64,000 bases of DNA. It comes from Oscillospiraceae bacterium. GTDB taxonomy: Bacteria; Bacillota; Clostridia; Oscillospirales; CAG-272. The position numbers and the translations under genes are program-made. Location of the stretch: positions 34,237 to 98,236 of the forward strand of contig SVQT01000001.1 of the NCBI GenBank assembly GCA_015065215.1. Reading direction: 5' to 3'. Of the stretch, positions 2,803-54,441 are shown in pieces. Each line of letters opens with the position of its first letter. Within the stretch, counting starts at the first letter, position 1. Under the pieces are notes generated by a model, which was not told where the DNA came from, did not search any database, and was given only the letters and a program-made list of their open reading frames with translations.

Positions 2803-4231
2803 CAAACGCTCTGCGGGGGTACTGATGCATGTATCCTCGCTTCACGGTAACTATTCTGTTGGCTCTTTTGGAAAAGAAGCGATAGAATTCATTGATTTTC
2901 TATCTGATGCCGGTTTTACCTATTGGCAAGTACTGCCGTTTTGCATTCCGGATGAGTGCGATTCACCCTACAAATCCGTCTCCGCGTTTTCCGGCAATCC
3001 TTATTTCATTGATCTGCCCACCCTTTACCGGGAGGGGTTATTGACAGAAAACGAGCTGGCAAGCGCGAAGCAAAGCACCCCTTATTTGATCGAGAGCAAG
3101 CGCTTGTCGCTGGAGCGCGAGCTTTTGCTTCGCAAAGCCGCCGCAAGAGTGAGCGATCGGGGCGAAATTCTTGATTTTATAAGCGCGAACCCTTATATTG
3201 ACGAGGCTTGCCGCTTTCTCGCGTTGAATAAAGCCAACCGCTTTTTGCCTTGGCAAAATTGGAAGGCCGATACATATGATGATGAGGATTATTTTTACCA
3301 CGCCTTTACCCAATATCATTTCATTAAGCAATGGAAGGGGATCAAGGCATACGCCAATCAAAAGGGGGTCCGTGTGATCGGGGATCTGCCTATTTATGTG
3401 GGGTTGCACAGTGCCGATGTCTATTTCCATCCTGACCAGTTTCAGCTGGATGCAAAGGGCATGCCCACCGCGGTGGCCGGCTGCCCCCCCGATTATTTTT
3501 CACAGGAGGGACAGTTTTGGGGCAATCCGCTTTACCGCTGGGATGTGATGAAGCGGGATAACTTTGTTTGGTGGCGCGCCCGCATGGCGCACACGCTTGA
3601 GATGTTTGATGGGGTGCGCATTGACCATTTCCGCGGCATTGAGTCCTATTGGAGCATTCCCGCCACAGCGGCGAGCGCTAAGGAGGGCCGATGGGTAAAG
3701 GGCCCCGGCATGGCGTTCGTTCGCGCCATGAAGGAGATGGCAGGGGAGCAGCTGATCATCGCCGAGGATCTCGGAGATATTCCGCCCGCTGTGCAAAAGC
3801 TGCTACAGCAAAGCGGCTTTCCCGGCATGCGCGTGTTCCAATTCGCCTTTCTCGGTGACCCGAAAACGCCGCATCTGCCCCACAATTATCCCAAAAATTG
3901 CATTGCCTATACCGGCACGCACGATAACAACACCTTGCTCGGCTATGTGTGGGAACAGGATGACGCTACACGCCGTCTGATGCTGGATTACTGCGGCTAT
4001 ACCGATGCGGACTGGGATAAGAGCTATGATGCCATTCTGCGCACCATGTTGCGTAGCCATGCTGGATTGGTGCTGTTTCCCGTACAGGATCTGCTGGGCT
4101 TTGGCGCCGATACCCGCATGAACACCCCCGGCCGTGCCGAGGGGAACTGGGGCTATCGCATAACCAAAGAGCAATTAGCGGCGTTGGATAGCGGCAAATT
4201 CAGCCATCTCAATCGGTTATACGGCAGATAA
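2789..4231 (+). CDS. malQ: 4-alpha-glucanotransferase (amylomaltase, GH77)
   Basis: N-terminus RSAGVLMHVSSLHGNYSVGSFG...WQVLPF and internal DHFRG, FWGNPLYRW and GTHDN segments are typical of MalQ. ATG 2789 overlaps the polA end by 14 nt. Confidence 0.9.
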   Translation: MTAINKRSAGVLMHVSSLHGNYSVGSFGKEAIEFIDFLSDAGFTYWQVLPFCIPDECDSPYKSVSAFSGNPYFIDLPTLYREGLLTENELASAKQSTPYLIESKRLSLERELLLRKAAARVSDRGEILDFISANPYIDEACRFLALNKANRFLPWQNWKADTYDDEDYFYHAFTQYHFIKQWKGIKAYANQKGVRVIGDLPIYVGLHSADVYFHPDQFQLDAKGMPTAVAGCPPDYFSQEGQFWGNPLYRWDVMKRDNFVWWRARMAHTLEMFDGVRIDHFRGIESYWSIPATAASAKEGRWVKGPGMAFVRAMKEMAGEQLIIAEDLGDIPPAVQKLLQQSGFPGMRVFQFAFLGDPKTPHLPHNYPKNCIAYTGTHDNNTLLGYVWEQDDATRRLMLDYCGYTDADWDKSYDAILRTMLRSHAGLVLFPVQDLLGFGADTRMNTPGRAEGNWGYRITKEQLAALDSGKFSHLNRLYGR

Positions 4232-4324: not shown

Positions 4325-5179
4325 ATGGAACTTTCAATCTGTGCAAATTATTTGCAAAAAGCCGAATTGAGTGATAAGAGCGCTTACAATATTTTCAAGC
4401 TGTGTAAGGATGCCGGTTTTACTGTCATTGACTACACCCCCGGCGGCGAAACATGGGAACAGCAGGTGGTTTCACTGTTAAAAGCCTCTGAAGCATTTGA
4501 AATGCCCTTAGAGCAATCTCACGCGCCCTTTAATCGCTATAGAAAGCTTCCCTTAGAGGATTACAAGCTGCTGTTAGACCGTGCCTTCGAGGCGGCCATC
4601 CGTATGGGCAACAAGCAAATCGTCATTCATGGCGACGATTATCGCGTGCCGAAGGACGGTGAGTATGATGCCGAGACGGCCATGAAGGAAATGTACGAGC
4701 TCTGGGCCCCTTATGTGGAAAAGGCTTCCAATAACGGTGTTTGTGTGGCCATTGAGACTGTGTTTGAGGACAACCGCGCCAAGGATGCGCCCCCGAACCG
4801 CTTTACCTCCCGTCTGGAGGAGCTGAAGGGGCTCATCGACCGCTTTGATAACCCCATGGTGACCTGCTGCTGGGATAGCGGCCACGCCCGCCTTGCCTTT
4901 ACACGTGCAGGCATGCCGGATGCCATGCGTGCCCTTGGATCCCGTATTACATCTACACATATCCACGATAATTATTACAACAAGGATCTGCACGTGATCC
5001 CGTTCCAGGGCGACATTGATTGGAGAGAGCAAATGGCGACCCTCAAAGAGATCGGCTATAAGGGCAATCTGACCTATGAGCTGGTCTATGGCAAATGGCC
5101 CGAGAGCATGGTGCCTGAGTTCCTCAAGGTTGCCGCCGATACCGGCAAGGTGCTGATCGATTGGTTTAATAAGACATAA
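4325..5179 (+). CDS. Sugar phosphate isomerase/epimerase (xylose isomerase-like TIM barrel)
   Basis: Pattern of metal and active-site segments (VIHGDD, AIETVFE, CWDSGHA, HIHDN, TYELV) typical of the AP_endonuc_2/TIM-barrel family. ATG 4325 follows AAAGGAG. Confidence 0.8.
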   Translation: MELSICANYLQKAELSDKSAYNIFKLCKDAGFTVIDYTPGGETWEQQVVSLLKASEAFEMPLEQSHAPFNRYRKLPLEDYKLLLDRAFEAAIRMGNKQIVIHGDDYRVPKDGEYDAETAMKEMYELWAPYVEKASNNGVCVAIETVFEDNRAKDAPPNRFTSRLEELKGLIDRFDNPMVTCCWDSGHARLAFTRAGMPDAMRALGSRITSTHIHDNYYNKDLHVIPFQGDIDWREQMATLKEIGYKGNLTYELVYGKWPESMVPEFLKVAADTGKVLIDWFNKT

Positions 5180-5189
5180 AACGCTGAAA

Positions 5190-5221
5190 AAGCCCCGAGT
5201 TAGAGCTCGGGGCTTCTTTTG
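5190..5221. terminator. Bidirectional hairpin terminator between convergent genes
   Basis: AAGCCCCGAG (5190-5199) pairs with CTCGGGGCTT (5206-5215). An A-run lies upstream and CTTTT downstream. The hairpin overlaps the stop codon of the minus-strand AraC gene. Confidence 0.65.
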
Positions 5222-6075
5222 ATATGCAAACTCTTGTATGTGTGGGGCGTCATGCCGGTATATTGCTTGAATATTTTGATAAAATGAGAGCTATCGGAAA
5301 AACCGCATTCATAGCAGGTAAACGCCACCGAATGCCCCTTGGCAAGTAATTGCTTGGCGAGAGCGATCTTTTTGATACGTAAATAGCTGCCGGCGGTCAC
5401 TCCCACGTACTTTTTGAAGAGTGCGGAGAGGTAAGGGGGAGAGATATTAAATTTTTCGGCAATGTCGCCAATAGCGTTGATCTCCCCTGGAGAGAGGCTG
5501 ATATATTGCAAAATTTTTCGCAAAAGTGGCGGTACGCCAGAGGGCTCTTGCAGTGGTGCAGCTAGGGAACGTTTGGTTTGATCGGTGATCAGTCCGATCA
5601 GCTGAAGCACAAGCCCCAGCGCCGACAGGCGCTGCCCCTCGTCGGCTTCCTTATCGCATAGTGCACTAAGCGCATAAAGAATAGCAAGCGCCTTTTCCTT
5701 GTCGGCATCCACAAGGGGCGGCTTTGCGTCGGCATCCGACAAAAAGATCTGTAGCGGATCGGGGATAAAAAAGGAAAAGAAGGAAAGAGGGATCAACAGA
5801 TAAAAACGCTCGTAAACACAAGTTTTTTTCAAAACGGGAACGTGTACCGCATGGGGAGAGATCGTCAGAAGATCCCCTCTGGAAAGCGAAAAATAGCGGT
5901 CCTCAATGATATAATCCGCCTCGCCGTCAACGAAAGCATAAATCTCGATACAATCGTTTAAATGAAGGTTGAAGCCGGCAGGGTTGTCAAAGCTGCGGCG
6001 GTGCACAAAGCGGATCGGTTCCCGGTCGCTATGCAAAAAGAGCTTGGTCTGCTTTTTAAAAAAATGGTCTGACAT
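5200..6075 (-). CDS. AraC family transcriptional regulator
   Basis: C-terminal double HTH of the AraC type (IAEKFNISPPYLSALFKKYVGVTAGSYLRIKKIALAKQLL...GFSDSSHFIKIFKQYTGMTP). N-terminal cupin-like sensor. Divergent from the gene at 6179. Confidence 0.85.
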   Translation of the reverse strand: MSDHFFKKQTKLFLHSDREPIRFVHRRSFDNPAGFNLHLNDCIEIYAFVDGEADYIIEDRYFSLSRGDLLTISPHAVHVPVLKKTCVYERFYLLIPLSFFSFFIPDPLQIFLSDADAKPPLVDADKEKALAILYALSALCDKEADEGQRLSALGLVLQLIGLITDQTKRSLAAPLQEPSGVPPLLRKILQYISLSPGEINAIGDIAEKFNISPPYLSALFKKYVGVTAGSYLRIKKIALAKQLLAKGHSVAFTCYECGFSDSSHFIKIFKQYTGMTPHTYKSLHIKRSPEL

Positions 6076-10858: not shown

Positions 10859-11575
10859 TTACAGTGGTGATTTTTCTGTAATGGCGGCTAAAAATACCGC
10901 GATCAATTGTTGGCGATAAAAGGGCTCGCAAAGCTTTTCGCACTCGGCGGGGGTGGAAAGAAAGCCGCATTCAATCAGAATAGCAGGAGTTTTTGCGTGA
11001 CGCAAAAGGTAAATATTGCTGCTGGCAGCTTTTACCTTTCGGTTGTTTTGCGGTTGAAGTATGCTTTTGACCTTGCTTTGTATTGCGTTTGCCCAGTCGA
11101 TCGATTGGGCGTGATTTTGTGAGTACCAGACCTGCACCCCTTCGCAGCTATCGTTTGGAAATGTGTTCATATGAATACTGATAAAAACGCTATCCGGATA
11201 CGATTCGGTAAAGGCCAAACGGTTGCTCAGATCCGATTGCTTTTTGTGTCCCTTGGGGGTGTTTTCGCTATAGAGCAGGCGATCGTCTGTTCTGGTTTCA
11301 ATCACGGTATAGCCTGCCAAACGCAGAAGTGCCGCCAGCTCCTTTGTCAGAGCAAGATTCAAGTCCTTTTCAAGCACGCCGTTCACACCGCTAGCGCCCC
11401 CATCCTCACCCCCGTGTCCGGCATCCAAAATGATCACAGGGGCCAGCTCCGAAGCGCCGCTGACTGCCAGCTCCTGAAGGAGCGCGTGGTCTGCCGCTCG
11501 AAAAAGGGAAGAGAGCAACAGTAGCGTTGAAAGAAATAAAATGCCAAAAGAAATCCATTTACTTTGATGCTTCAT
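10859..11575 (-). CDS. cwlD: N-acetylmuramoyl-L-alanine amidase, germination-specific CwlD-like
   Basis: Signal/anchor followed by an Amidase_3 domain (VIILDAGHGGEDGGA, FISIHMN, AILIECGFLS). Size and layout match CwlD. ATG 11575 lies 6 nt after GAGGTG. Confidence 0.8.
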   Translation of the reverse strand: MKHQSKWISFGILFLSTLLLLSSLFRAADHALLQELAVSGASELAPVIILDAGHGGEDGGASGVNGVLEKDLNLALTKELAALLRLAGYTVIETRTDDRLLYSENTPKGHKKQSDLSNRLAFTESYPDSVFISIHMNTFPNDSCEGVQVWYSQNHAQSIDWANAIQSKVKSILQPQNNRKVKAASSNIYLLRHAKTPAILIECGFLSTPAECEKLCEPFYRQQLIAVFLAAITEKSPL

Positions 11576-42509: not shown

Positions 42510-43541
42510 ATGGAAAACGAAAAAAAACGGAAGTTATTCTCTTTTAGCAAAACCGAAAAACCGGATCTTGGACCGGAGGATACCACACCAACGCTAAAAT
42601 TTTTCTTCAAGCTGTTGTGGCGAAAAATCGGCAAGCTGATGACGCTGAATATTATGATGATGCCGCAGTATCTCTTACTGATCATTGCCGCGTTGATCTT
42701 CTTTTTGGGTAATAACAAAGTCGCAACCACAGAATATGCCCTGTACGCGCCTTTGCTTGGCATCAGCATTGCGGGTGGCTCGCCTACAGCCAATTTGCTG
42801 CTGGGCATTTTTTCCCGTCAATTGGATATGCCCTTTCTCACCCCCGGCCGTACCGTGGTGATCGTTATATTGATTGCGCTCACCGTTGTGACATGGGGAT
42901 GGCAAAATGTCGGCGCCGCGTATAACCTGCGCAGCTTGATCCGCGGAGATTCCTGTTTTTTGCTGTCGGATTATTTTTATGCTATCCGCCGCAATTTAAA
43001 ACAAGGCTTTTTCTTTGGCTTGCTGGATGCCATTGTTCTGATCGTGTTGGGCGTTGATTTGTTCTATTTCAACGCGCTTTCCGGCCAAGGATTCTTTTTG
43101 GGCTTCATGTTTATCATGATCATTGCCATCGCGTTGATCTATATGGTCATGCGCTTCTACATTTATTACATGATGATCACCTTTGAGCTGTCCATCAAAA
43201 AGCTGCTCAAGAACGCGCTGATCTTTGTCACCTTGGGCATCAAACGCAATCTGATGGCGCTTTTGGGCATTGCTTTGGTGGTCGGATTGAATATTGTTTT
43301 TGTGATACTGGGCCTGCAAGTGGGCTTCACCCTGCCGCTCATCCTCCCCGTTTTCTATCTCCCCGCGCTGTCGGCCTTTATGGCAGGCTACGCGGCCTGG
43401 CCTATCATCCAACGGTATATGATCGACCCCTATGTGGATCACACCCAGTCGGACACGTTTGAAACAGAGCCGGAAGCGGTCAGTGACCTTGAGCAAACCG
43501 CAGAGGAGGAAGCTACGCTCCCTCCCCCAACAGCTGACTAA
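42510..43541 (+). CDS. Hypothetical polytopic membrane protein (possibly YesL/DUF624-like)
   Basis: ATG 42510 follows GAAAGGAAAA. The N-terminal FFFKLLWRKIGKLMTLNIMMM pattern is reminiscent of DUF624. Acidic C-tail. Confidence 0.55.
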   Translation: MENEKKRKLFSFSKTEKPDLGPEDTTPTLKFFFKLLWRKIGKLMTLNIMMMPQYLLLIIAALIFFLGNNKVATTEYALYAPLLGISIAGGSPTANLLLGIFSRQLDMPFLTPGRTVVIVILIALTVVTWGWQNVGAAYNLRSLIRGDSCFLLSDYFYAIRRNLKQGFFFGLLDAIVLIVLGVDLFYFNALSGQGFFLGFMFIMIIAIALIYMVMRFYIYYMMITFELSIKKLLKNALIFVTLGIKRNLMALLGIALVVGLNIVFVILGLQVGFTLPLILPVFYLPALSAFMAGYAAWPIIQRYMIDPYVDHTQSDTFETEPEAVSDLEQTAEEEATLPPPTAD

Positions 43542-44199
43542 CCGTTACAAATTCAAAGCCCAACTCACGAAGCATTGGTATGATCTGCCGCAACGCTTCG
43601 GGGGTTGGGCTATTTTTACCAATAAAATCGTGCATGAGAATAATCGACCCGTTTTGGGTGTTCTGTTTGACGTTGCGGCAGATTTCCTCAATCGGTGTGT
43701 GCGCCCAATCACGTGTATCTACGCTCCACATCACAATTTTCATATTTAAATCTCCGCAAATCTCTTTGACATCACAGTTACAAACGCCTTCCGGTGGGCG
43801 AAAATAGCGGGGACACACACCCGAGATGCGCTGGATGGTATCGTTACATGTTCGAATATCCTTCTCTAACGCGTCGGCGCTCATTTTTCCCACATGGTTA
43901 TGGTTAAAGGTATGATTGTTCAACTCATGCCCTTCTTCCACAATCTGTTTGATCAAAGCGGGATACGCCTCTACATTGGTACCAACGGCAAAAAAAGTAG
44001 CCGCTACATTGTTTTCTTTTAGAATCTTTAAAATTTGCGGCGTGTATTTGGGATGTGGACCGTCATCAAAGGTCAACGCCACCCGTAGCTGTTCGGTTTT
44101 GGCGGCGGAACGGTAAATAACCTCCGCTTCTGCGCCCACTGGCATGCCAGCCCCCCAAAGCACCGCCAAGACCAGACCGAAAAGAATCAGCCGCCGCAT
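43513..44199 (-). CDS. Polysaccharide deacetylase (NodB homology domain), secreted
   Basis: Signal peptide. Motifs TFDDGPHP, NHTFNH, RPPEG, LMHD. Confidence 0.85.
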   Translation of the reverse strand: MRRLILFGLVLAVLWGAGMPVGAEAEVIYRSAAKTEQLRVALTFDDGPHPKYTPQILKILKENNVAATFFAVGTNVEAYPALIKQIVEEGHELNNHTFNHNHVGKMSADALEKDIRTCNDTIQRISGVCPRYFRPPEGVCNCDVKEICGDLNMKIVMWSVDTRDWAHTPIEEICRNVKQNTQNGSIILMHDFIGKNSPTPEALRQIIPMLRELGFEFVTVSQLLGEGA

Positions 44200-44963
44200 A
44201 ATGCATCAAGTGTACCAAAGCGGTACCCTTCCGCTTTCAATGTCGAAATCACTTGCGGTAAAATAGCGGCATTGGTGGCAGAGGTGGGGTGCAACAGTAA
44301 GACTGCCCCGTTGTGGATATTGTCGAGTATAAGACGGATGGCGGTATCCGGCGCCATCTGACGCCCGTTGTCCCAATCGGCATAGGCGAAGCTCCAAAAG
44401 ACGGTTTTGTAACCAATTTCTTGCACATGCTCTAACATCTCCCTTGAAAAGCTGCCCTCCGGCGGTCTGAAATAGGGGGCGGTAACGATCCCGTTTTCCT
44501 GACAGACCTTTTCCAGCTCGGTTAGCTCCGCTTTGATTTTTTCAGCGCTCGCAAAAGCCAGATTGGGATGGTTCGCGGTATGGTTGCAAACCAAGTGTCC
44601 CTCGGCATTCATACGCCGCAAAAGATCGGTATTGGCAGTAACAACATGCTTTAATACAAAGAAGGCGCCGGGTGTTTGCGTTTCTTTTAGCGTGCCTAAA
44701 ATTTTTTCCACATTGCCATTCTCATATCCCACGTCAAAGGTAAGATAAACCACCTTATCTTCATTTCCCTCGTGATGCGTGTGGTCGATATAATATCCAC
44801 CACAGTCCTCTACAAACCTAAGTTCCGGGGCGGCGATCGCCTGTCGATGGGCTTTTTGCCGTACACAATACCAGTGCAATTCCTTGCTCTGCGCCCGGAC
44901 AGTCAGCGGTAAAACAAGCAAAACCAGCAGCGTCAAAAAAGCGCTTTTACAAAATCGTTTCAA
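44187..44963 (-). CDS. pdaA: Delta-lactam-biosynthetic de-N-acetylase PdaA-like polysaccharide deacetylase
   Basis: YLTFDVGYENGN, GHLVCNHTANHP, RPPEGSFS, VFWSFAYADW and LLLHP parallel B. subtilis PdaA. Start moved to TTG 44963, 9 nt after AAAGGAG. Confidence 0.75.
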   Translation of the reverse strand: MKRFCKSAFLTLLVLLVLPLTVRAQSKELHWYCVRQKAHRQAIAAPELRFVEDCGGYYIDHTHHEGNEDKVVYLTFDVGYENGNVEKILGTLKETQTPGAFFVLKHVVTANTDLLRRMNAEGHLVCNHTANHPNLAFASAEKIKAELTELEKVCQENGIVTAPYFRPPEGSFSREMLEHVQEIGYKTVFWSFAYADWDNGRQMAPDTAIRLILDNIHNGAVLLLHPTSATNAAILPQVISTLKAEGYRFGTLDALCGG

Positions 44964-45030
44964 CGCGATCAACTCCTTTCAAAATTAGTTTTTCGACCTC
45001 ACGGCATTTCAAACAAGGCAATTTTTATAT

Positions 45031-45079
45031 AAAAAAATCACGGTTGGCTTTCTGCCCCTACGGGCAAAAGCCAACCGTG
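45031..45079 (-). terminator. Rho-independent terminator after the DMT-type transporter gene
   Basis: CACGGTTGGCTTT (45040-45052) pairs with AAAGCCAACCGTG (45067-45079), with a nested TGCCC/GGGCA stem. The minus-strand transcript ends in ATTTTTTT. Confidence 0.8.
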
Positions 45080-45100
45080 AGTCTTTTTCGTTTTATCGTT

Positions 45101-46009
45101 TTAAGCGCCACCCAACGCGACAACACCAATCAAACCTGCTGCCATACCGGCACAACCGATCCAATTCAGCACAGACAGCTTTTCCTTGAGAAAAATAAAG
45201 GAGCACAGCACGCTGAAAAGCAACACACCCGCGTTATCAATGGTAAACAGAACCGTTGTGTTCATACCGCTGTTGATCAACAGGGTCAAAACAATAATGG
45301 CAGAAGCGGTTGCCAAGGAACACAGCAAAAGGAACAGCCCGGATTTTTTTGATTGCTTAAAGTCTGCAATAAACTGTTTTTTGCGTTGTACCAAGCCCAA
45401 CACAAGGTTTAGCAACGCAGAAGTGGCAAAGGTGCAAATGATCATTTCGTTTTTGGAATTTACAGTAACCGCATAAGCCGCCTGATGTGCCAGCAAGGCC
45501 CCGTAAAGACCGTTGCAGACGAACAGCAGCAGGCAGAATACCCAAAACTGCCTATTGCCGGAAAACATGCTTTCCCCTTCCTTTTTGCTGACCAAAAAGA
45601 TAGAAAGAATAATCAGCGCCACAAAAGGCCAGCCCCAAGGCATCAATCCTTTGCCGTAAGCGTAAGAAATGAAAGCAGGCAACAAAATACCGCCGGAAAG
45701 CATCATTGACATTTGAACCGAATACGGCCCTTTGCGAGATGCCTGAATCATCGAAAAATTATAAGTAGCCAAGATGATACCGTTGACTGTACCCATAACA
45801 ATGATCTGCCAGTTCCAATGAAACGGCAGGGTAAAAAGCGCGAAGGCCAACGCGGCCAGCGCAGTCACCAATCCGCTGACCACCGAAAAAACCGGAGATG
45901 CGGCATCGGGATCACCCGGATAATGCGCTGTATAGACCTTGCAGAAAAAAGATTGACCGGTATAAATCAGGATCAGAACCGCAATCATCACACATTCAAA
46001 AATACCCAT
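45101..46009 (-). CDS. DMT superfamily (EamA-like) transporter
   Basis: Ten hydrophobic segments. The C-terminal FLKEKLSVLNWIGCAGMAAGLIGV is typical of EamA repeats. Start at ATG 46009 (GAAGGGGA RBS) or ATG 46048 (no RBS). Confidence 0.65.
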   Translation of the reverse strand: MGIFECVMIAVLILIYTGQSFFCKVYTAHYPGDPDAASPVFSVVSGLVTALAALAFALFTLPFHWNWQIIVMGTVNGIILATYNFSMIQASRKGPYSVQMSMMLSGGILLPAFISYAYGKGLMPWGWPFVALIILSIFLVSKKEGESMFSGNRQFWVFCLLLFVCNGLYGALLAHQAAYAVTVNSKNEMIICTFATSALLNLVLGLVQRKKQFIADFKQSKKSGLFLLLCSLATASAIIVLTLLINSGMNTTVLFTIDNAGVLLFSVLCSFIFLKEKLSVLNWIGCAGMAAGLIGVVALGGA

Positions 46010-46074
46010 CACAAAAAATTCCCCTTCATATGTACAGTACTGTAGCATGAGATCAAATAAAACATAAAAGTGCT

Positions 46075-46749
46075 TTATTCTTCTGAACCGAATTCCTCCA
46101 TATGCGCGATGACATATGCGGTCATTTGTTCCTCAAAATAGCGGCGATTTTTGCGGAAGAATACAGGGATACGCGCGGATCCCTTTGGCGCGCTCCGCTT
46201 CAATTCGTAAAAGAAATCGGCAAATGCGTCAGCGTTTGCCTCACACAAGGCGCCACAAAGATACCCCATCGCCTTTTCGCTTGTATCATTAAATTGGGTC
46301 AGGATCTCGCTATCTTCTTTTTGTGAAAGCTCCCAAAGAAGGCGAAAGGCAACCAACGGACGAAAAACCTTTTCCTGCTCCAGCTTAACGCGCAATTCCC
46401 ACGGCACTTCCAAAAACAGATCAGGGAGTTTAGTGATGTAATCACCCAAATAACTGTCAATGCCCTCCAGCACATCTTCAAAAGACATTTTCTCTTCTTG
46501 CGCTTCATCGTTTTTATCTTGCTGCCGCGCAAGAGCGGGGGCGACATCCTCATATTCCATTTTTTCTTTGTGACCCAAATACAGGATCACACCGCCCCCG
46601 GCCAGCAGAAGGGCGGAAAGAATATACAGGATCACCCCCAATGCCACCGATTTGCTGGCAGCAGCCGGAATGATCAAGATGATTGCCACAATCGCACAGG
46701 CGGTTGCCAAATGCATGGCGTGATCAACAAAGAACTTGTTTTGCTTCAA
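46075..46749 (-). CDS. Hypothetical protein: two N-terminal TM helices plus an acidic cytoplasmic domain
   Basis: TTG 46749 lies 7 nt after GGAGG, which overlaps the pcrA stop region. No family recognised. Confidence 0.55.
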   Translation of the reverse strand: MKQNKFFVDHAMHLATACAIVAIILIIPAAASKSVALGVILYILSALLLAGGGVILYLGHKEKMEYEDVAPALARQQDKNDEAQEEKMSFEDVLEGIDSYLGDYITKLPDLFLEVPWELRVKLEQEKVFRPLVAFRLLWELSQKEDSEILTQFNDTSEKAMGYLCGALCEANADAFADFFYELKRSAPKGSARIPVFFRKNRRYFEEQMTAYVIAHMEEFGSEE

Positions 46750-46763
46750 AATGCGACCTCCGT

Positions 46764-49160
46764 TTATATTTTCTTTAGTTTTGCATAGGTTGCCATTAAC
46801 TTTTTTGTCCCCTTGGTATCAAAAGCAATCTCGTAAAGTGTATCGGCGGCAACCTTTGTCACCGTCAGGACCGTACCGTCGCCAAAGGTCATATGCCGCA
46901 CTCTGGCACCTGGCTCAAAACGCTCAACAGGCGCTTTGGGTGCCACCGTTCGCCCTACGGTAATCTGATCTCTGGCCGCAATTTGTCTGGCGCTTTCCGG
47001 ACGATGATAAGCAGTACTGCCATAGGCAACATGAGGATTTTGCTCTTTTGGCTGTTCAACCAACCCTTCCGGAATTTCAGAAAGAAAACGGGAAGCAGGA
47101 TTATAACCGGTACGGCCGTAAAGCAACCGGGATTTCGCATGCAAAATGTACAACTCGTCTTTGGCGCGGGTGATGGCAACATAGGCAAGACGGCGCTCCT
47201 CTTCGATCTCCTCGGGACCTGCCATGATGGTTTGCAGCCCGGGGAAAATCCCCTCCTCAAAGCCGGGGAGAAAAACGCGCGAGAACTCCAACCCTTTGGC
47301 ACTGTGAATGGTCATCAAAACCACCGCGTCAGCCGTGTCATCGTACCGATCCACATCGGCCACCAACGCGGTTTCCTGTAAAAACTCAGTCAAGGATGGC
47401 GTTTCTACGCTCTCCATATATTCCTTCACATTGGAAATAAATTCTTCCAAGTTATCCAAACGGTCCGCTTCCTCTTCCCCCATATCACGGATCATCTGAC
47501 GGTATCCGGTGCGATCCATCACCTGATCCACAAAGACATCCAACGGCATGGTGGGCGCCAGCTCGGTGAGTTCGTTGATCAGTCCGGCAAATTGCATCAG
47601 GGTTGCGGCAGCGCGGGAAAGCGCTAAGTATTGGTCAGCCTTTTCCATGATCTCAAACATCGAAACGCCTTCGCTTGCGGCAATTTCCTCTACCGCGGCA
47701 AGTGTGCGATCGCCCAACTTGCGTTTGGGCTCATTGACAATACGCAGCAAGCGCTCTTTATCGCTATGATTTTCAATCAATTGTAAATAAGCGACAACAT
47801 CCTTGATTTCTTTGCGATCCGCAAATCGAATACCACCCAGCATACGGTACGGCATCGCGCTACGGGCAAAAACGCTTTCCAAAGCGTTGGATTGGGCATT
47901 GGCACGAAACAAAACGGCAAAATCCCTGTATTGGGCTTTTCCTGCCGCCACACTCCGCTGAATGATGTCCACAATCTCTCTCGCTTCCGCATTCTGATGC
48001 TCCGGGTTCAGTACCCGAATTTTGCTTCCCTCCCCACGGTTGGTAAACAAGGTCTTGCGCATCGCGTCGTCTTTGGTATTGTGTGAGATCACTGCGTTGG
48101 CGGCATCCAAAATCCGTTGCGTGGAACGATAATTCTGCTCCAAACGGATCAGGGTTGCCGGATGGAACACTTTGGTAAACTCCAAAATATTTTCAATGGT
48201 AGCACCACGGAATTTATAAATACTTTGGTCGTCATCACCCACCACCATCAAATTGCGATGGCCGCCTGAAAGCAGCTCGGTCAAGCGGAATTGGGCATGG
48301 TTGGTATCCTGGTACTCGTCAACCGATACATAACGAAATTGATTTTGATAGGAACGGCAAATTTCCTCGTTGTCACGCAGAAGATCTACAGTGCGCACAA
48401 TAATGTCGTCAAAATCCAGCGCATTGGAGTCTGCCAAACGCTTTTGATAGCCAAAATAGACCTTCTCGACCAATTTGAGCTTGTATTCGTTCCCCATTTC
48501 CAGCAGAAAGCTTTCCGGTTTGATCAATCGGTCTTTCGCGCGGCTGATATAGCTCAGGGCGGTTTTGACCGGTAACACCTTCTCGTCAATATTTAAAGAG
48601 GAAAGCACCGCCTTCATCGCCTTTTTTGAGTCGTCGGTATCATAAACGGTAAATCCGGGGGCAAGCCCAGCCTCGGCGGCATAACGACGCAAAATACGCA
48701 TGCAAATCGAATGAAAGGTACCTGCCCAGATGGTACTTGGCAGATCAGGATCCTCCGGGAAGGCGGCGGCAAGGCGTGACTTGATCTCGTTTGCCGCCTT
48801 GTTGGTGAAGGTAATGGCCAACACCTGCCAAGGGTGCGCAGGGCGGTTGGAAAAACCGCACAGCAGGCGCTCCAGCTCCTCCTGTTTCATGGGGGTACGC
48901 AGGGCAAGCTCTAAAGAATTCACCAAATCCTCGCTAACGAAATCCGGCAAAAAATCACTATGATAAGCGTTGCCAAATCGGATGATATAGGCGATACGGC
49001 GAACCAGCACCGTTGTCTTGCCACTGCCGGCACCCGCCAGAATCAGCAAGGGATCTTGAACATGATAAACCGCCTGACGCTGTTGATCGTTGAGCGCACC
49101 GTAGTAGCGATCAAACAATGCCCGTTTGGCGGCAAGATAACGTTTTTTTAAATCCTGCAT
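46764..49160 (-). CDS. pcrA: ATP-dependent DNA helicase PcrA/UvrD (SF1)
   Basis: Motifs AGAGSGKTT (Walker A), VDEYQDTN, TIHSAKGLEF and VAITRAK, plus a C-terminal Tudor-like domain. ATG 49160. Confidence 0.93.
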   Translation of the reverse strand: MQDLKKRYLAAKRALFDRYYGALNDQQRQAVYHVQDPLLILAGAGSGKTTVLVRRIAYIIRFGNAYHSDFLPDFVSEDLVNSLELALRTPMKQEELERLLCGFSNRPAHPWQVLAITFTNKAANEIKSRLAAAFPEDPDLPSTIWAGTFHSICMRILRRYAAEAGLAPGFTVYDTDDSKKAMKAVLSSLNIDEKVLPVKTALSYISRAKDRLIKPESFLLEMGNEYKLKLVEKVYFGYQKRLADSNALDFDDIIVRTVDLLRDNEEICRSYQNQFRYVSVDEYQDTNHAQFRLTELLSGGHRNLMVVGDDDQSIYKFRGATIENILEFTKVFHPATLIRLEQNYRSTQRILDAANAVISHNTKDDAMRKTLFTNRGEGSKIRVLNPEHQNAEAREIVDIIQRSVAAGKAQYRDFAVLFRANAQSNALESVFARSAMPYRMLGGIRFADRKEIKDVVAYLQLIENHSDKERLLRIVNEPKRKLGDRTLAAVEEIAASEGVSMFEIMEKADQYLALSRAAATLMQFAGLINELTELAPTMPLDVFVDQVMDRTGYRQMIRDMGEEEADRLDNLEEFISNVKEYMESVETPSLTEFLQETALVADVDRYDDTADAVVLMTIHSAKGLEFSRVFLPGFEEGIFPGLQTIMAGPEEIEEERRLAYVAITRAKDELYILHAKSRLLYGRTGYNPASRFLSEIPEGLVEQPKEQNPHVAYGSTAYHRPESARQIAARDQITVGRTVAPKAPVERFEPGARVRHMTFGDGTVLTVTKVAADTLYEIAFDTKGTKKLMATYAKLKKI

Positions 49161-49188
49161 AATCAACCTCACATTTTCTTTCACTACC

Positions 49189-49217
49189 ATTATACTATAA
49201 TTCGCCATAAAAATCAA
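49189..49217 (-). promoter_or_regulatory. SigA-type promoter for pcrA
   Basis: Minus strand: TTGATT (complement of 49212-49217), 17-nt spacer, TATAAT (complement of 49189-49194). Confidence 0.55.
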
Positions 49218-49223
49218 CGGGCA

Positions 49224-49258
49224 GAAAAGAAAAAGGAGACGGAAAAAATCCGTCTCCC
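49224..49258 (-). terminator. Rho-independent terminator after the Asn/Gln-rich small ORF
   Basis: GGAGACGG (49235-49242) pairs with CCGTCTCC (49250-49257). The minus-strand transcript continues TTTTTCTTTTC. Confidence 0.7.
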
Positions 49259-49272
49259 TCAAAGTCAAAAAA

Positions 49273-49464
49273 TCAGTACTGCTTGTTCTCGCTGCGGTTC
49301 TGATTTTGTTGATTTTGGCTCTTGTTTTGATTTTGGTTCTGGCTCTGATTCTGATTCTGGCTCTGATTCTGATTCTGGTTCTGGTTCTTGTTCTGGCTCT
49401 GGTTCTGATTCTGGTTTTGGCTTTGATACTGGTTCTGGTTTTGGTTTTGGTTACGATTATCCAT
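49273..49464 (-). CDS. Small Asn/Gln-rich repeat protein (63 aa, 22 N + 25 Q)
   Basis: ATG 49464 lies 8 nt after AAGGAG. It has its own terminator directly downstream. Same strand as all neighbouring genes. Sequence: MDNRNQNQNQNQYQSQNQNQNQSQNKNQNQNQNQSQNQNQSQNQNQNKSQNQQNQNRSENKQY. Confidence 0.55.
   Translation of the reverse strand: MDNRNQNQNQNQYQSQNQNQNQSQNKNQNQNQNQSQNQNQSQNQNQNKSQNQQNQNRSENKQY
49296..49452. repeat. Tandem hexanucleotide repeat, ~26 units of YTGRYT (fwd) = (AAC/AAT/AGC)(CAG/CAA) on the minus strand
   Basis: Read directly: ...ctggct ctgatt ctgatt ctggct ctgatt ctgatt ctggtt ctggtt cttgtt ctggct ctggtt ctgatt ctggtt... Confidence 0.9.
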
Positions 49465-49529
49465 CTTTCCGCACTCCTTGATTTTTTGTAGCCTCGCTAC
49501 GCCATTAGTATGGAGCAAGAAAAGAAAAA

Positions 49530-51029
49530 CTATGCATCAAAGCGAAATCTGTTTTGGATCTCACGGTAAATGCCGAGCAGTAAAGAACCAAACAAAACAG
49601 CAAATATCACAGCGGCGCAAAAATCAAAAACCCAGGTAAATTCCAGCAAATGATAGATGCCCTTGCCCGGCATTGTCTTTATATAATCAAACAAAAAGGA
49701 AAATAACGCGCTAACAAAACCAAAAACAAAGCATCTGATCAGCTTTCCGTCAAATTCCGCGCGCAAGCGTCGCAGATGGCGGGTTTCAAAATGCGCTTGG
49801 TGTTGTTCATCAGGAGCCATGTGATCGACAGGCAAACGGTCTTCTTCTGTTAAGTATCTTCGCTTTTCTGGCATCTCGAGCGCCTCATCCTCGGTCAAGG
49901 TTTCGGCATGATGAGAGCGATACCCCGCCCATTCCCAAATAACAGCGCGCAGCAAGAAAAGAAGCAGCGTTAGTAAAACAGTAAACACAAGGAATTCCCC
50001 AAGAGAGGTGATCCACATCAAAGAATAGGCTTGATTTGCCGTTTCGCTTCTGGAAATAGCGTCAGCGCTGTATTGACTGACAAATTGATAGGCAAAATGG
50101 CTGGAAATGCCTGAGATCGCCCCATAAATCACCGCTGCAATGGCAGCGGCGATTTTTATTTTTTTGTCGGTTGCGGGAATGAGAATGCCCACCAGCAACA
50201 GTAGCCCCGCCAATATGTCTGGAAATACATTGCGAAAATCCAAATAAAAATCCACCAATAAAATAGCGCCCGTGAGTAAAAACAGAAATGCTACGGCATG
50301 TCTGCGCTCAACCGCGAATCCGGGATGCGCCTGTCGATACGCCAAATAACGTTCTCCAAGCTCTTGGTGCATCGCCTTTGCCCCACGGAAATGTAAATAA
50401 TACCAAAGCAAAAAGCCGCCTGCCACAATCAGGCTTGCTATGCCCACCAGCAAAAAGGAAACCGAACGCAAAAGCGTGATATATTCATACATACGGTTCC
50501 AACCGGTGTTGTTAAACGAATTGGTCGAGGTGGCAAGTGCCGCAAACTCGGGTAAAAGACCAAGAATTTCCCGCAGGAACAAAAAAGCGATCATCACTTT
50601 TTTCAACGTATCGGTCCTTGAGGCGCCGCCAAGCTCACTGCTGTAAAGCTCGGTACAGTCACAAGCGCTTGCCAGCGCATAAAAGGATTCAAAAAGCAAA
50701 CGAATGGCAGGAATGGCAAAGCACAGTTCCAAGATGGTTGCCGCAAACGTCACGATCAACAAAACCGTGGGCTGATCAGCGGCGCTCCCCATGCCAAATA
50801 CCAATAGCAAAGCAAGATTTTTACAAGCATCCACTACCGCCAGCTTTGAAAACGCGATTTTCGACTCTCGGATGCCGGGATGCACCAAGGCGGCCCGGGA
50901 AAGCCCCAGACAAATCAAAAGGCAACCGATAAAATCCGGCAATATATCCACAGCCGCAAATGACGGATTGCAAAAGAAAGCAAGGCCCAGAAAAACAGTA
51001 CCGAATGTGATGGGACGTGCTTTGGTCAT
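49530..51029 (-). CDS. Hypothetical polytopic membrane protein (499 aa)
   Basis: About 12 hydrophobic segments. The start overlaps the stop of the upstream gene (ATGA at 51026-51029). No family recognised. Confidence 0.65.
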   Translation of the reverse strand: MTKARPITFGTVFLGLAFFCNPSFAAVDILPDFIGCLLICLGLSRAALVHPGIRESKIAFSKLAVVDACKNLALLLVFGMGSAADQPTVLLIVTFAATILELCFAIPAIRLLFESFYALASACDCTELYSSELGGASRTDTLKKVMIAFLFLREILGLLPEFAALATSTNSFNNTGWNRMYEYITLLRSVSFLLVGIASLIVAGGFLLWYYLHFRGAKAMHQELGERYLAYRQAHPGFAVERRHAVAFLFLLTGAILLVDFYLDFRNVFPDILAGLLLLVGILIPATDKKIKIAAAIAAVIYGAISGISSHFAYQFVSQYSADAISRSETANQAYSLMWITSLGEFLVFTVLLTLLLFLLRAVIWEWAGYRSHHAETLTEDEALEMPEKRRYLTEEDRLPVDHMAPDEQHQAHFETRHLRRLRAEFDGKLIRCFVFGFVSALFSFLFDYIKTMPGKGIYHLLEFTWVFDFCAAVIFAVLFGSLLLGIYREIQNRFRFDA

Positions 51030-51640
51030 GATGCATCATCCCCTTTCTTTCTTTTTTTCAACGCGGGGTCCGGTGTTCTGACATCTTCATCCTCAGGGGC
51101 AATCTTGCGATAGCATTGGAAAAATAGCCACATATTCAGGAAAAGGAATAAAATCTTTAGCAACAAAACGGGGATAGCGAAATAAGCCGGATTGGCGGCA
51201 ATCTGCGGAATTGGCAGCCGAGAAATGGCGTCGATCACAGCATAAAGCGCCATCATAATCAGGTTGCGCCAGGCACCGCTTTGTAAAACAAGAAAACGAA
51301 GCTCCCCGGCAAGTCCCGCAACGCTGTAGAGCAAAAAGAAGTGGAAACACAGCGAAAACAGGAAATATCCCAATTCAAAAATACCATACGTTACACCTTC
51401 AAAGAGTGCCCACTGTACGCCGCACCATTGCATGATGGCAAAAACGGTAAAATACACCGCAAACGGCAAGGCGCCAAAAGAGATATAAAAGCTATGGCGA
51501 AAACGGGTATGATAGGGGGCCAGGCGCCATAGCGCATAGATCATGATCGGATAGCCGACAAGCATGGAAAAGGAAAGCGTAGAATACAGCGACATAATAT
51601 TGGCAAAAAAATAGCCAATCAATAGCAATCCAAAGCCCAT
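51026..51640 (-). CDS. Hypothetical polytopic membrane protein (204 aa)
   Basis: ATG 51640 follows AAAGGAAAGGAGAG. Six hydrophobic segments and a basic/acidic C-tail. The track ORF start at 51748 would overlap secA and encodes a non-hydrophobic basic run, so I rejected it. Confidence 0.6.
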   Translation of the reverse strand: MGFGLLLIGYFFANIMSLYSTLSFSMLVGYPIMIYALWRLAPYHTRFRHSFYISFGALPFAVYFTVFAIMQWCGVQWALFEGVTYGIFELGYFLFSLCFHFFLLYSVAGLAGELRFLVLQSGAWRNLIMMALYAVIDAISRLPIPQIAANPAYFAIPVLLLKILFLFLNMWLFFQCYRKIAPEDEDVRTPDPALKKRKKGDDAS

Positions 51641-51678
51641 ATGCTCTCTCCTTTCCTTTTCATCAAAATCACTTTCTT

Positions 51679-54441
51679 TTAGTTGCTTCCGCCATTTGCG
51701 GGGGCACCGCAGCATTTTTTGTATTTTTTGCCGCTGCCACAGGGGCACAGATCGTTTCTGCCCACCTTTTCCGCTTTTCGAACAATAATCGTGGTCTTTT
51801 TCTGCTGACCGGCTTCACCGGCAAGACCCTCTTTTAAGGGCTTGGCCACCTGCACACGCTGAGCGGTTTGGGTGCGGGGGACGGCGGAAAGCAAAACACG
51901 CACCGTCTCAGAGCGAATCTCGGCTACCATTTCCTCAAATATTTCAGAGCCCTGCAAGCGGTATTCATTCACAGGATCACGTTGCGCGTATGCCTGAAGA
52001 CCAATACTGCCCTTCAGATCATCCATAATGTCAATATGCTCCATCCAATGACGGTCAACCGTCTGTAACAGAATAGAACGCTCCACCTCACGGAAGACAT
52101 CCGCGCCAAACAATTCTTCTTTGCTATCATAAATGGCAAGTGCCTTGTCAAAGATGAAGGCCACAAGATCCTTGCTCTTCCACTTTTCCTCGGCAATTTG
52201 TTCAGGATCCAGATCGCCACTGTGCAGTAGATAGCCACTGTAGTATTTTTCCAAGCCCTCTAAATTCCAAAGATGAAAATCCTCGTCTGCGGCAAAGGAT
52301 GCAACAGTTTCCTCAATAGAGGCACGCATCATGCCACGAACGGTCTCAGAAATATCTTCGCCATTCAACACCTCCAAGCGCTGCGTGTAGATCAAATTCC
52401 GCTGTTGGTTCATCACATCGTCATAAGTCAACACATATTTTCTGCGCTTGAAGTGATTTTCTTCAATCTGCCGTTGCGCACGCTCAATCGAACCAGAAAG
52501 AATACCGGCACTGATCGGTTGATCTTCCGGCAAGCCGAGCCTGGTAACAAGATTTTTGAGTCGCTCGGTATTATGGCCGAAAATGCGCATCAGATCATCA
52601 TCCAGCGACAGGAAAAAGCGGGACTCACCGGGGTCACCCTGTCTGCCGGAACGACCGCGCAGCTGGTTGTCAATACGGCGGCTCTCATGGCGCTCGGTAC
52701 CCAGAATAAAGAGACCGCCCGCCTCGCGGACACGCTCTGCCTCGGGGGCAATCAATGCTTTGAAATGTTGATTGAGCTCCTGGAATTTCAGTCTGGCGGC
52801 ACGAATTTCCTCGTCCTCGATGTCAGCCGTGCCGGTTGCCATGGCGATGATTTCTTCAGGATAATCCATTTTGCGCATTTCATTTTTTGCCATATGCTCC
52901 GGATTGCCGCCAAGCATAATATCAGTACCGCGTCCCGCCATATTGGTAGAAATGGTCACAGCACCGTATTTACCGGCCTGCGCCACAATCTCCGCCTCGC
53001 GTTCATGATGCTTGGCGTTCAGTACATTGTGCGGAATACCGTGCTTTTTCAACCGCGCCGACAGTTCTTCTGATTTATCTACACTGACAGTACCAACCAG
53101 CACCGGCTGCCCCTTACGATAACAGGCTTCAATCTGGGCGACAATGGCATCATATTTGCCCTTCATATCACGGTAAACCACATCGTTTTGGTCAATGCGG
53201 ATCATCGGCTTATTGGTGGGGACCTCCACCACATCCAACGCATAGATCTCACGGAATTCGGTTTCCTCTGTCAGTGCCGTACCGGTCATACCGGAAAGCT
53301 TTTGATACATGCGGAAGTAGTTTTGGAAGGTAATGGTAGCAAGCGTGCGGTTTTCTTTTTGGATCTGTACCCCTTCTTTGGCCTCAATTGCCTGATGCAA
53401 GCCGTTGGAATACCGGCGGCCGGGCATAATGCGACCGGTAAAGGAGTCGACGATCATCACGCCGTTCTCGTTTACCACATAGTCCACGTCACGCTTCATG
53501 ACGCCGTGCGCGTGAATGGCCTGCTTTACATGGTGGGCAAATGTAGAATTTTCCGGATCGTTGAGATTGTCAATCCCGAAAAATTCTTCTGCCTTTTTCG
53601 CGCCTTGAGGGGTCAGAATGGCGTTTCTATCCTTTTCATCGACCAGATAGTCCACTTCCACTCCGTCGGTTTCCTCTTTGTTATCCACCTCTTTGCGCAC
53701 CAGCTTGGTCATACGGCGGACCAGCTCATTGGTGCGGTCATAAAGATCGGTCGATTTCTGCCCTGCACCGGAAATAATCAGCGGGGTACGGGCTTCATCA
53801 ATCAAAATCGAGTCTACCTCGTCTACAATGGCGAAAACATGCTTTCTTTGCACCATATCCTTTTTATAGACCACCATGTTGTCACGCAGATAGTCAAAGC
53901 CAAACTCATTATTGGTGCCATAGGTAATATCCGCGGCATAGGCAGCCTGCTTTTCGGCAGGGGTCAAGCCGTGAACGATCAAGCCGGTAGAAAGGCCCAT
54001 AAAAGCATAAACACGCCCCATCTCCTCGCTATCACGGCGAGCCAGGTAATCGTTCACGGTAACCACGTGTACCCCTTCACCGGTCAATGCGTTCAGATAG
54101 GCCGGCATCGTTGCCACCAACGTTTTACCTTCACCGGTCTTCATTTCAGCAATACGTCCCTGATGCAAAATGATACCGCCAAGAAGTTGAACATAGAACG
54201 GTCGTTTGCCAAGCACGCGGTCATCCGCCTCCCGAACAGCGGCAAACGCGTCACACAAGATGTCGTCAAGCGTCTCTCCGTTTTGCAATCTGTTCTTTAA
54301 CACAATGGTCACGCCTGCCAATTCCTCGTTGCTCATAGCAGCGTATTTCGGCGCCAACGCTTCAATGGCATCGGCTACTTTTTTCAACTTTTTTATTTGA
54401 CGGTCACTATAGGAACCGAAGATTTTACGAAAAATTCCCAC
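51679..54441 (-). CDS. secA: Preprotein translocase ATPase SecA
   Basis: Walker A (MKTGEGKT), DEVDSILIDEARTPLIISG, preprotein cross-linking and helical scaffold domains, and C-terminal zinc motif CPCGSGKKYKKCCG. GTG start follows GGAGG. Confidence 0.96.
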   Translation of the reverse strand: MGIFRKIFGSYSDRQIKKLKKVADAIEALAPKYAAMSNEELAGVTIVLKNRLQNGETLDDILCDAFAAVREADDRVLGKRPFYVQLLGGIILHQGRIAEMKTGEGKTLVATMPAYLNALTGEGVHVVTVNDYLARRDSEEMGRVYAFMGLSTGLIVHGLTPAEKQAAYAADITYGTNNEFGFDYLRDNMVVYKKDMVQRKHVFAIVDEVDSILIDEARTPLIISGAGQKSTDLYDRTNELVRRMTKLVRKEVDNKEETDGVEVDYLVDEKDRNAILTPQGAKKAEEFFGIDNLNDPENSTFAHHVKQAIHAHGVMKRDVDYVVNENGVMIVDSFTGRIMPGRRYSNGLHQAIEAKEGVQIQKENRTLATITFQNYFRMYQKLSGMTGTALTEETEFREIYALDVVEVPTNKPMIRIDQNDVVYRDMKGKYDAIVAQIEACYRKGQPVLVGTVSVDKSEELSARLKKHGIPHNVLNAKHHEREAEIVAQAGKYGAVTISTNMAGRGTDIMLGGNPEHMAKNEMRKMDYPEEIIAMATGTADIEDEEIRAARLKFQELNQHFKALIAPEAERVREAGGLFILGTERHESRRIDNQLRGRSGRQGDPGESRFFLSLDDDLMRIFGHNTERLKNLVTRLGLPEDQPISAGILSGSIERAQRQIEENHFKRRKYVLTYDDVMNQQRNLIYTQRLEVLNGEDISETVRGMMRASIEETVASFAADEDFHLWNLEGLEKYYSGYLLHSGDLDPEQIAEEKWKSKDLVAFIFDKALAIYDSKEELFGADVFREVERSILLQTVDRHWMEHIDIMDDLKGSIGLQAYAQRDPVNEYRLQGSEIFEEMVAEIRSETVRVLLSAVPRTQTAQRVQVAKPLKEGLAGEAGQQKKTTIIVRKAEKVGRNDLCPCGSGKKYKKCCGAPANGGSN

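Follow-up and report, generated by a model that had tools for sequence, protein, structure and literature searches.

A putative forespore-expressed family of asparagine- and glutamine-rich mini-proteins in uncultured Oscillospirales

The closest described systems to the protein reported here are the SASPs, which are less than 100 aa long and sigma-G-driven. SspE, the gamma-type SASP of the Bacillales, is small, repetitive, unstructured and very variable between species, and its composition is enriched in glutamine and asparagine. It is sigma-G-expressed and presumed to store amino acids for outgrowth. The gamma type, for which a role as an amino-acid reservoir was proposed, is absent from every clostridial genome examined. 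Clostridia have been reported to carry only the SspF/Ssp4 alpha/beta-type SASPs, some species also having SspH, SspI or Tlp-like proteins. Bacillus has in addition a set of minor SASPs (SspG, SspJ-SspP, Tlp and CsgA), which are short (~35-80 aa), hydrophilic and basic; their genes are monocistronic, dispensable and narrowly distributed, each with its own promoter (sigma-G) and terminator. Beyond the SASPs, the spore-associated protein GerG of C. difficile, which acts on Csp protease incorporation, carries disordered, Asn-rich low-complexity repeats that vary in number and gel in vitro but are dispensable for its function. The eukaryotic prion-like domains of Sup35 and Rnq1 provide a further comparison, as they combine extreme Q/N bias with predicted disorder.

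We analysed a stretch of 64,000 nucleotides from an Oscillospiraceae bacterium (the window) that contains a gene for a 63-aa protein built almost entirely of asparagine and glutamine (the N/Q protein). The coding sequence, defined from the ORF list, its translation and orthologous ORFs, occupies 49273..49464 of the minus strand with its TGA stop included, and the translation of 49464-49273 reads in full MDNRNQNQNQNQYQSQNQNQNQSQNKNQNQNQNQSQNQNQSQNQNQNKSQNQQNQNRSENKQY. This reproduced the 22 N and 25 Q among 63 residues counted in an earlier note on this DNA. N+Q thus makes up 75% of the protein; the figure for the window's ordinary genes is 6.6%, and no second ORF in the 64-kb window exceeds 40% N+Q over 25 residues. 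The protein has a mass of 7.65 kDa, a pI of 9.8, a net charge of +3 and a GRAVY of -3.1. Met1 is its sole hydrophobic residue and it has neither a signal peptide nor a hydrophobic segment. AlphaFold2 returned a pLDDT of 57 and a pTM of 0.16 with no secondary structure, and the protein is predicted to be intrinsically disordered.

The surroundings of the gene are those of an independent transcription unit. A Shine-Dalgarno site, AAGGAG (49474..49479, minus strand), lies 9 nt before the ATG, one more than the 8 nt given previously, and the family members examined have such a site too, with a GGAG core. The terminator that the earlier note had placed just 3' of the gene is real: folding identified an intrinsic terminator at 49222..49260 of the minus strand, with a 12-bp stem (49260-49232) that starts 12 nt past the stop codon, a 5-nt loop and a T-run. 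Its folding energy is -20 kcal/mol (z = -4.3) and none of 200 shuffles folded as well. All genes from 43513 to 54441 lie on the minus strand, in agreement with the shared orientation described before. Gene callers called the N/Q gene on 24 metagenome contigs, and it is very probably a real, translated gene.

Comparison with the known systems shows both likenesses and differences. The nearest putative functional analogue of the N/Q protein is SspE, which it resembles in being small, repetitive, Q/N-enriched, unstructured and very variable between species, and its 75% N+Q, period of 6 and pLDDT of 57 fit the gamma-type trait of Q/N-rich repeats with no stable fold. They have no sequence similarity (Pfam, NCBIfam and phmmer were all empty), the composition of the N/Q protein is far more extreme, with hardly any other residue types, and it comes from Oscillospirales, within the Clostridia, which lack SspE. 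It also lacks a GPR motif; the canonical GPR cleavage motif E-(I/F)-A was found in none of 17 N/Q family sequences. Pfam and NCBIfam gave no homology to the alpha/beta-type SASPs (SspA/SspF). With its own promoter and terminator, monocistronic arrangement, hydrophilic character and length of under 100 residues, the gene fits the SASPs in size and organisation, and like the minor Bacillus SASPs the protein is short and basic and its gene narrowly distributed and dispensable. The sequences of these proteins are however unrelated to it and none is an N/Q repeat. GerG shares Asn-rich low-complexity repeats, disorder and variable repeat number, but is larger, is C. difficile-specific, has conserved non-repeat ends and GMPNNMSNNMNSNM repeats, and shows no homology. 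In Sup35 and Rnq1 the Q/N-rich regions are domains within larger proteins with Gly/Tyr/Ser spacers, whereas here the whole 63 aa are the tract, with regular Lys/Arg and a putative place in a sporulation regulon.

Database searches found no trace of the family. A word-indexed search of 5.8 billion proteins gave no homologue of the 63-aa protein, an exhaustive phmmer search against 1.84 billion representatives gave 0 matches, and nothing in the PDB matched. Pfam and NCBIfam likewise yielded nothing, either for the window protein (E<=0.1) or for eight relatives (E<=10), and a search of Rfam over 44-56 kb of the window returned a single chance mir-135 match. The statement in the earlier note that no described family exists for this protein thus held in Pfam, NCBIfam, PDB and phmmer searches. 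An exact look-up of ten family members in a collection of 15 billion proteins found none of the ten, although gene callers had picked them up on contigs; it seems that clustered databases systematically lose low-complexity mini-proteins. The N/Q family is real and is un-catalogued in the libraries and papers searched. Such genes are a blind spot of homology-based annotation, to which they are invisible, and promoter, composition and synteny are needed to find them.

As direct homology searches with the N/Q protein fail, we sought relatives through the 499-aa membrane protein encoded upstream, used as an anchor. The anchor gene (49530-51029) and a gene at 51026-51640, both on the minus strand, overlap, follow directly after secA and encode polytopic membrane proteins of 499 and 204 aa; neither belongs to a Pfam or NCBIfam family. 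The anchor family is small, at 64 clusters, and consists entirely of sequences from MAGs of uncultured Ruminococcaceae, Oscillospiraceae or Clostridia; the order secA, membrane pair, pcrA was kept at every locus where both flanks could be read. The syntenic set, retrieved only through the anchor, consists of 12 species-level loci including the window, in which the anchor proteins are 37-65% identical to that of the window.

An N/Q-rich ORF of 36-71 aa lies between the anchor gene and pcrA at 10 of the 12 loci (63 aa in the window and 39, 45, 36, 71, 48, 48, 68, 42 and 56 aa at L009, L010, L012, L013, L014, L015, L017, L018 and L019, respectively). A small Q/N ORF downstream of homologues of the gene at 49530, as the earlier note had suggested looking for, is thus present, and the outcomes that would have counted against a protein (stop codons in the repeat, other reading frames, or the tract missing from all relatives) were not what was seen: the ORF is intact and in frame at these ten loci. 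At L011 and L016 it is absent and the gap to pcrA is 82 nt and 18 nt, so the gene is dispensable. All ten ORF-bearing loci have a sigma-G-type promoter (spacer N17/18), a Shine-Dalgarno site and an ATG, and in nine an obvious terminator hairpin follows shortly 3' of the stop. The exception is L012, where there is ~1 kb extra between the N/Q gene and pcrA (4680-5540), an insert that encodes a small zinc-ribbon and transmembrane protein (MFCSKCGKEIDNEAVICVHCGCP...).

The proteins are conserved in a restricted set of features. Six of the ten syntenic members begin M-E/D-N-R-N-Q-N-Q and L012 is one residue off (MEKRNQNQ); the nucleotide changes beneath this shared N-terminus are nearly all in third codon positions. 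All 14 members scored, which are 29-71 aa long, have a net charge of +2 to +4, a pI of 9.5-12 and at most three hydrophobic residues, and N+Q is 62-86% in every family member but one. The retention of N-terminus, charge and mixed codons suggests that the repeat is under selection at the protein level.

The DNA beneath the repeat is less regular than had been thought. Tandem Repeats Finder reported a period of 6, 22.8 copies and 77% matches at 49316-49452, but the synonymous codons are intermixed (AAC/AAT 13/9, CAG/CAA 16/9) and the longest run of identical hexamers is two, which does not agree with the description of the tract as a nearly pure hexamer array. The mixture of codons means that the repeat has been kept as an amino-acid pattern and is not a young microsatellite. 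With identical runs of no more than two units, the change of length by slippage suggested in the earlier note is not a current property of the gene, and we rejected a slippage-prone contingency repeat: there is no long run of identical units and a 410-nt region is identical in all 14 loci compared. These loci look single-strain wherever checked, making this a weak test of repeat number within a species; two of them match the window at 100% across 11.4 kb and another at 99.96%, and L004 deviates only in secA. Among species the ORF ranges from 29 to 87 aa, so the tract does grow and shrink over evolutionary time. In the deviating part of L004 (1-2454, about 52500-54250 of the window) each 250 nt contains 30-157 positions that differ or are gapped, with the rest of the contig equal to the window, which suggests either a patch of strain-level recombination or a chimeric assembly.

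The gene also has a promoter, which was not part of the earlier description. Pattern match and alignment identified GCATA-N18-CATACTA (49535-49506) immediately 5' of the gene, with a -35 element, GCATA (49531..49535, minus strand), that overlaps the TAG (49532-49530) ending the 499-aa gene before it, and a -10 element, CATACTA (49506..49512, minus strand), 18 nt past it. Scanning both strands of the window (128 kb) for G[ACT]AT[AG]-N17/18-CAT[AT][AC]TA gave one match, at the N/Q gene, where dinucleotide shuffles gave an expectation of 0.24 (0.02 for the strict form). In most syntenic relatives the -35 reads TGAATA in place of the window's GCATA, while the -10 is exactly CATACTA at seven of the ten loci and has one or two mismatches at the remaining three. 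The invariant columns in the alignment of these ten loci are mostly those of the -35, the -10, a G in the Shine-Dalgarno region, the ATG and fixed sites in the earliest codons; conservation is lacking in the promoter spacer and over most of the leader. The motif resembles the mapped sigma-F/sigma-G promoters of C. difficile, with a -35 of TG[AT]ATA and a -10 of ..A[AT]A[AC]TA; the specificities of sigma-F and sigma-G overlap in Clostridia. It also matches the sigma-G consensus of B. subtilis, which is reportedly GHATR-N17/18-CATXHTA. From these likenesses we infer that the gene is probably sigma-G-dependent.

Folding also placed a small hairpin, GTAGC-GAG-GCTAC (49488..49500, minus strand), near the predicted 5' end of the transcript. 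Of 16 family members, 11 have a hairpin ~5 nt past the -10 (the window, L009, L010, L012, L017-L019, L043, L048, L049 and L054), with stems that differ in sequence (GTAGC/GCTAC, GTGTA/TACAC, GCGG/CCGC, GGG/CCC). It may serve as a 5'-terminal stabiliser of the mRNA.

The same design was found away from the anchor gene. We scanned metagenomes for CATACTA-N30-60-(AAYCAR)3AAY, a pattern with the -10 built in but not the -35. It matched 42 loci, most of them chance matches or inner parts of large proteins. GNATA occurred 17-18 nt upstream in exactly seven of the 42, and these seven were the ones in which a complete ATG-started N/Q ORF (29-87 aa) was paired with a Shine-Dalgarno site. At four of these seven non-syntenic loci (L043, L048, L049 and L054) the N/Q gene lies directly 3' of spoVAD-spoVAE, identified by PF07451 and PF03862 with E down to 1e-138, and its promoter overlaps the spoVAE 3' end. 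The product of the spoVA operon is the dipicolinate channel of the forespore; in C. difficile this operon and all SASP genes are sigma-G-dependent. At L031, from a human gut metagenome, and L039 the N/Q gene has a methyltransferase-like gene on one side and a convergent yitT on the other, in an uncultured Bacillota near Caproiciproducens (nearest named genus at ~55% for L031). The occurrence of promoter, mini-ORF and terminator together in several contexts indicates a modular unit that has repeatedly been tied to the forespore regulon.

Two of the proteins found by the scan are longer. L049 encodes an 87-aa Asn/Ser/Tyr-rich protein after spoVAE (751-1014, locus reverse-complemented) and L057 an 86-aa protein of ~15 NSNQ repeats (3384-3644), both with the same promoter type, and so the class extends beyond strict N-Q alternation. 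A short motif, [S/P/F/N]-E-N-[K/R], recurs near the C-termini of the proteins of the window, L013, L014, L015, L031 (twice), L048 and L054, in sequence otherwise devoid of features. It differs from the canonical GPR motif; one might speculate that [S/P/F]-E-N-[K/R] is a candidate site for processing or recognition by a protease.

Taken with the promoter, the spoVA-linked sister genes support the spore-associated role that the earlier note had proposed, but its position beside secA, from which that role had been argued, is not the pointer to function since the gene has a promoter of its own. We think that the gene is probably specific to sporulation and the forespore. Our favoured reading, to which we give a probability of about 0.5, is that the N/Q protein is a small spore protein, basic and disordered, that is expressed in the forespore and has a reserve role, and we infer a location in the spore core. 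It would represent a class of SASP that is new and specific to its lineage. Late in sporulation, RNA polymerase carrying sigma-G, or the overlapping sigma-F, would transcribe the gene in the forespore from a promoter, with its -35 on the preceding stop codon and its -10 of CATACTA, active only in the developing spore. The short transcript would have an unstructured A/C-rich coding region between the 5' hairpin and the strong terminator and would be translated from the good Shine-Dalgarno site. On germination the protein would be degraded, and the asparagine and glutamine released could supply amide nitrogen and Asp/Glu skeletons for outgrowth, so doing the job of the gamma-type SASP of Bacillales. 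A polymer that is 75% Asn/Gln holds ~2 nitrogen atoms per residue and is an efficient ribosomally made nitrogen store, which is why a reserve role is favoured; that an amino-acid or nitrogen reserve is its main role is nevertheless a tentative proposal, and may well prove wrong.

A physical role for a forespore-expressed N/Q protein is the alternative closest to this, with the protein acting as a gel, a glass, an amyloid-like matrix or a nucleoid coat, or as a prion- or LEA-like protectant. The Q/N content and predicted disorder would suit such a role, the constant small positive charge would suit contact with nucleic acid, and the Asn-rich repeats of GerG do gel in vitro. However, the GerG repeats can be removed without loss of function, and absence of the gene from two of the 12 loci, together with the wide variation in length, speaks against a precise structural part. 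Typical prion-like domains also differ from the N/Q protein, in which charges are few and aromatics nearly absent. Extreme Q/N content could suit a physical role just as well as a reserve, which makes this a serious rival, though we regard it as unlikely. It is quite improbable that the ORF is young, weakly selected or functionless, a biased tract that is merely transcribed and translated. Its fast turnover in length (29-87 aa), its loss from two relatives and the lack of a homologue in the databases searched could be read in that way, but promoter, Shine-Dalgarno site, ATG, N-terminal motif and charge were all kept while the anchor fell to 37-65% identity, the same design is found independently at other loci, and the mixture of synonymous codons indicates long maintenance at the protein level. 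Mother-cell expression during sporulation, driven by sigma-E or sigma-K and with the peptide in the coat or cortex, is highly improbable. The sigma-E consensus, ATA ... CATACA-T, does resemble the motif of the N/Q gene, and the sigma-E/sigma-K promoters of C. difficile have similar -10 sequences. As sigma-G and sigma-E motifs are alike (ATA ... CATAC), the assignment depends on two features, the conserved -35 G and the CTA within the -10. That G is invariant in the family alignment, and 16 of 17 members have TA, the sigma-G form, at positions 6-7 of the -10, and not CA-T. Four members adjoin the forespore spoVA operon, and a protein with no signal peptide or hydrophobic segment also fits poorly with a mother-cell product.

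Two further readings dispense with a spore protein altogether. The 47 Asn/Gln codons, with a terminator 12 nt later and a gene downstream on the same strand, have the appearance of a leader peptide that senses the charging of Asn- and Gln-tRNA and regulates terminator read-through into pcrA. We rejected such an attenuator, and give it next to no chance: the fold of the whole transcript contains no antiterminator, leaving the coding region unpaired and the terminator intact; pcrA has its own promoter (TTGATT-17-TATAAT) after the terminator and lies outside the Asn/Gln pathway; and the next gene is convergent at L031, L043 and L054. The tract could otherwise be a non-coding repeat, or its product the antisense Leu/Val/Ile-rich peptide encoded at 49306-49491 of the plus strand, whose frame is open in every relative. 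That openness follows automatically from the codon set, because the complement of AAY-CAR reads YTG-RTT. The antisense ORFs start with TTG or GTG at unconserved positions, whereas it is the sense strand that carries the promoter, the Shine-Dalgarno site, the ATG, the conserved N-terminus and the terminator; this reading, very improbable, was also rejected.

Returning to the putative reserve protein of the spore core, a wider proposal would be that Oscillospirales, and perhaps other Clostridia, have an unrecognised and widespread class of sigma-G-driven N/Q proteins that stands in for the missing gamma-type SASP as the chief store of nitrogen and amino acids in the spore. We think this doubtful as a whole. 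By their polar-zipper chemistry the N/Q proteins would also contribute to the gel- or glass-like condition of the dehydrated core, and such spore proteins would have escaped notice because low-complexity filters strip them from protein databases. The family would be a candidate for the missing gamma-type function in gut Oscillospirales, whose members spread between hosts as spores, and the gene provides a testable hypothesis on nitrogen storage in spores and on the behaviour of a pure Q/N polypeptide in a nearly dry cytoplasm.

That the host is a spore-former was an assumption of the earlier note. The window itself holds only three matches that bear on it, to CwlD (10859-11575, minus strand; NCBIfam 184.8 bits, cut-off 221.6, next-best amidase family 50.9), PdaA (44187-44972, minus strand; 242.5 bits, cut-off 298) and PdaB (43513-44199, minus strand; 182.6 bits, cut-off 237). 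Each is the best NCBIfam match for its gene and all are under the curated cut-offs. CwlD and PdaA jointly make the muramic delta-lactam that is specific to the spore cortex. No further sporulation genes were found by Pfam or NCBIfam among 25 window ORFs or in 10-kb extensions on each side, and sigG, gpr, an alpha/beta SASP gene and the core spo genes were not seen in the 64 kb plus ~18 kb of flanks. The conserved sigma-G-type promoter, as indirect evidence, points to a spore-forming host. The sequence GGTCGAAAAACTAA upstream of the PdaA-like gene is similar to the -10 elements of forespore promoters mapped in C. difficile.
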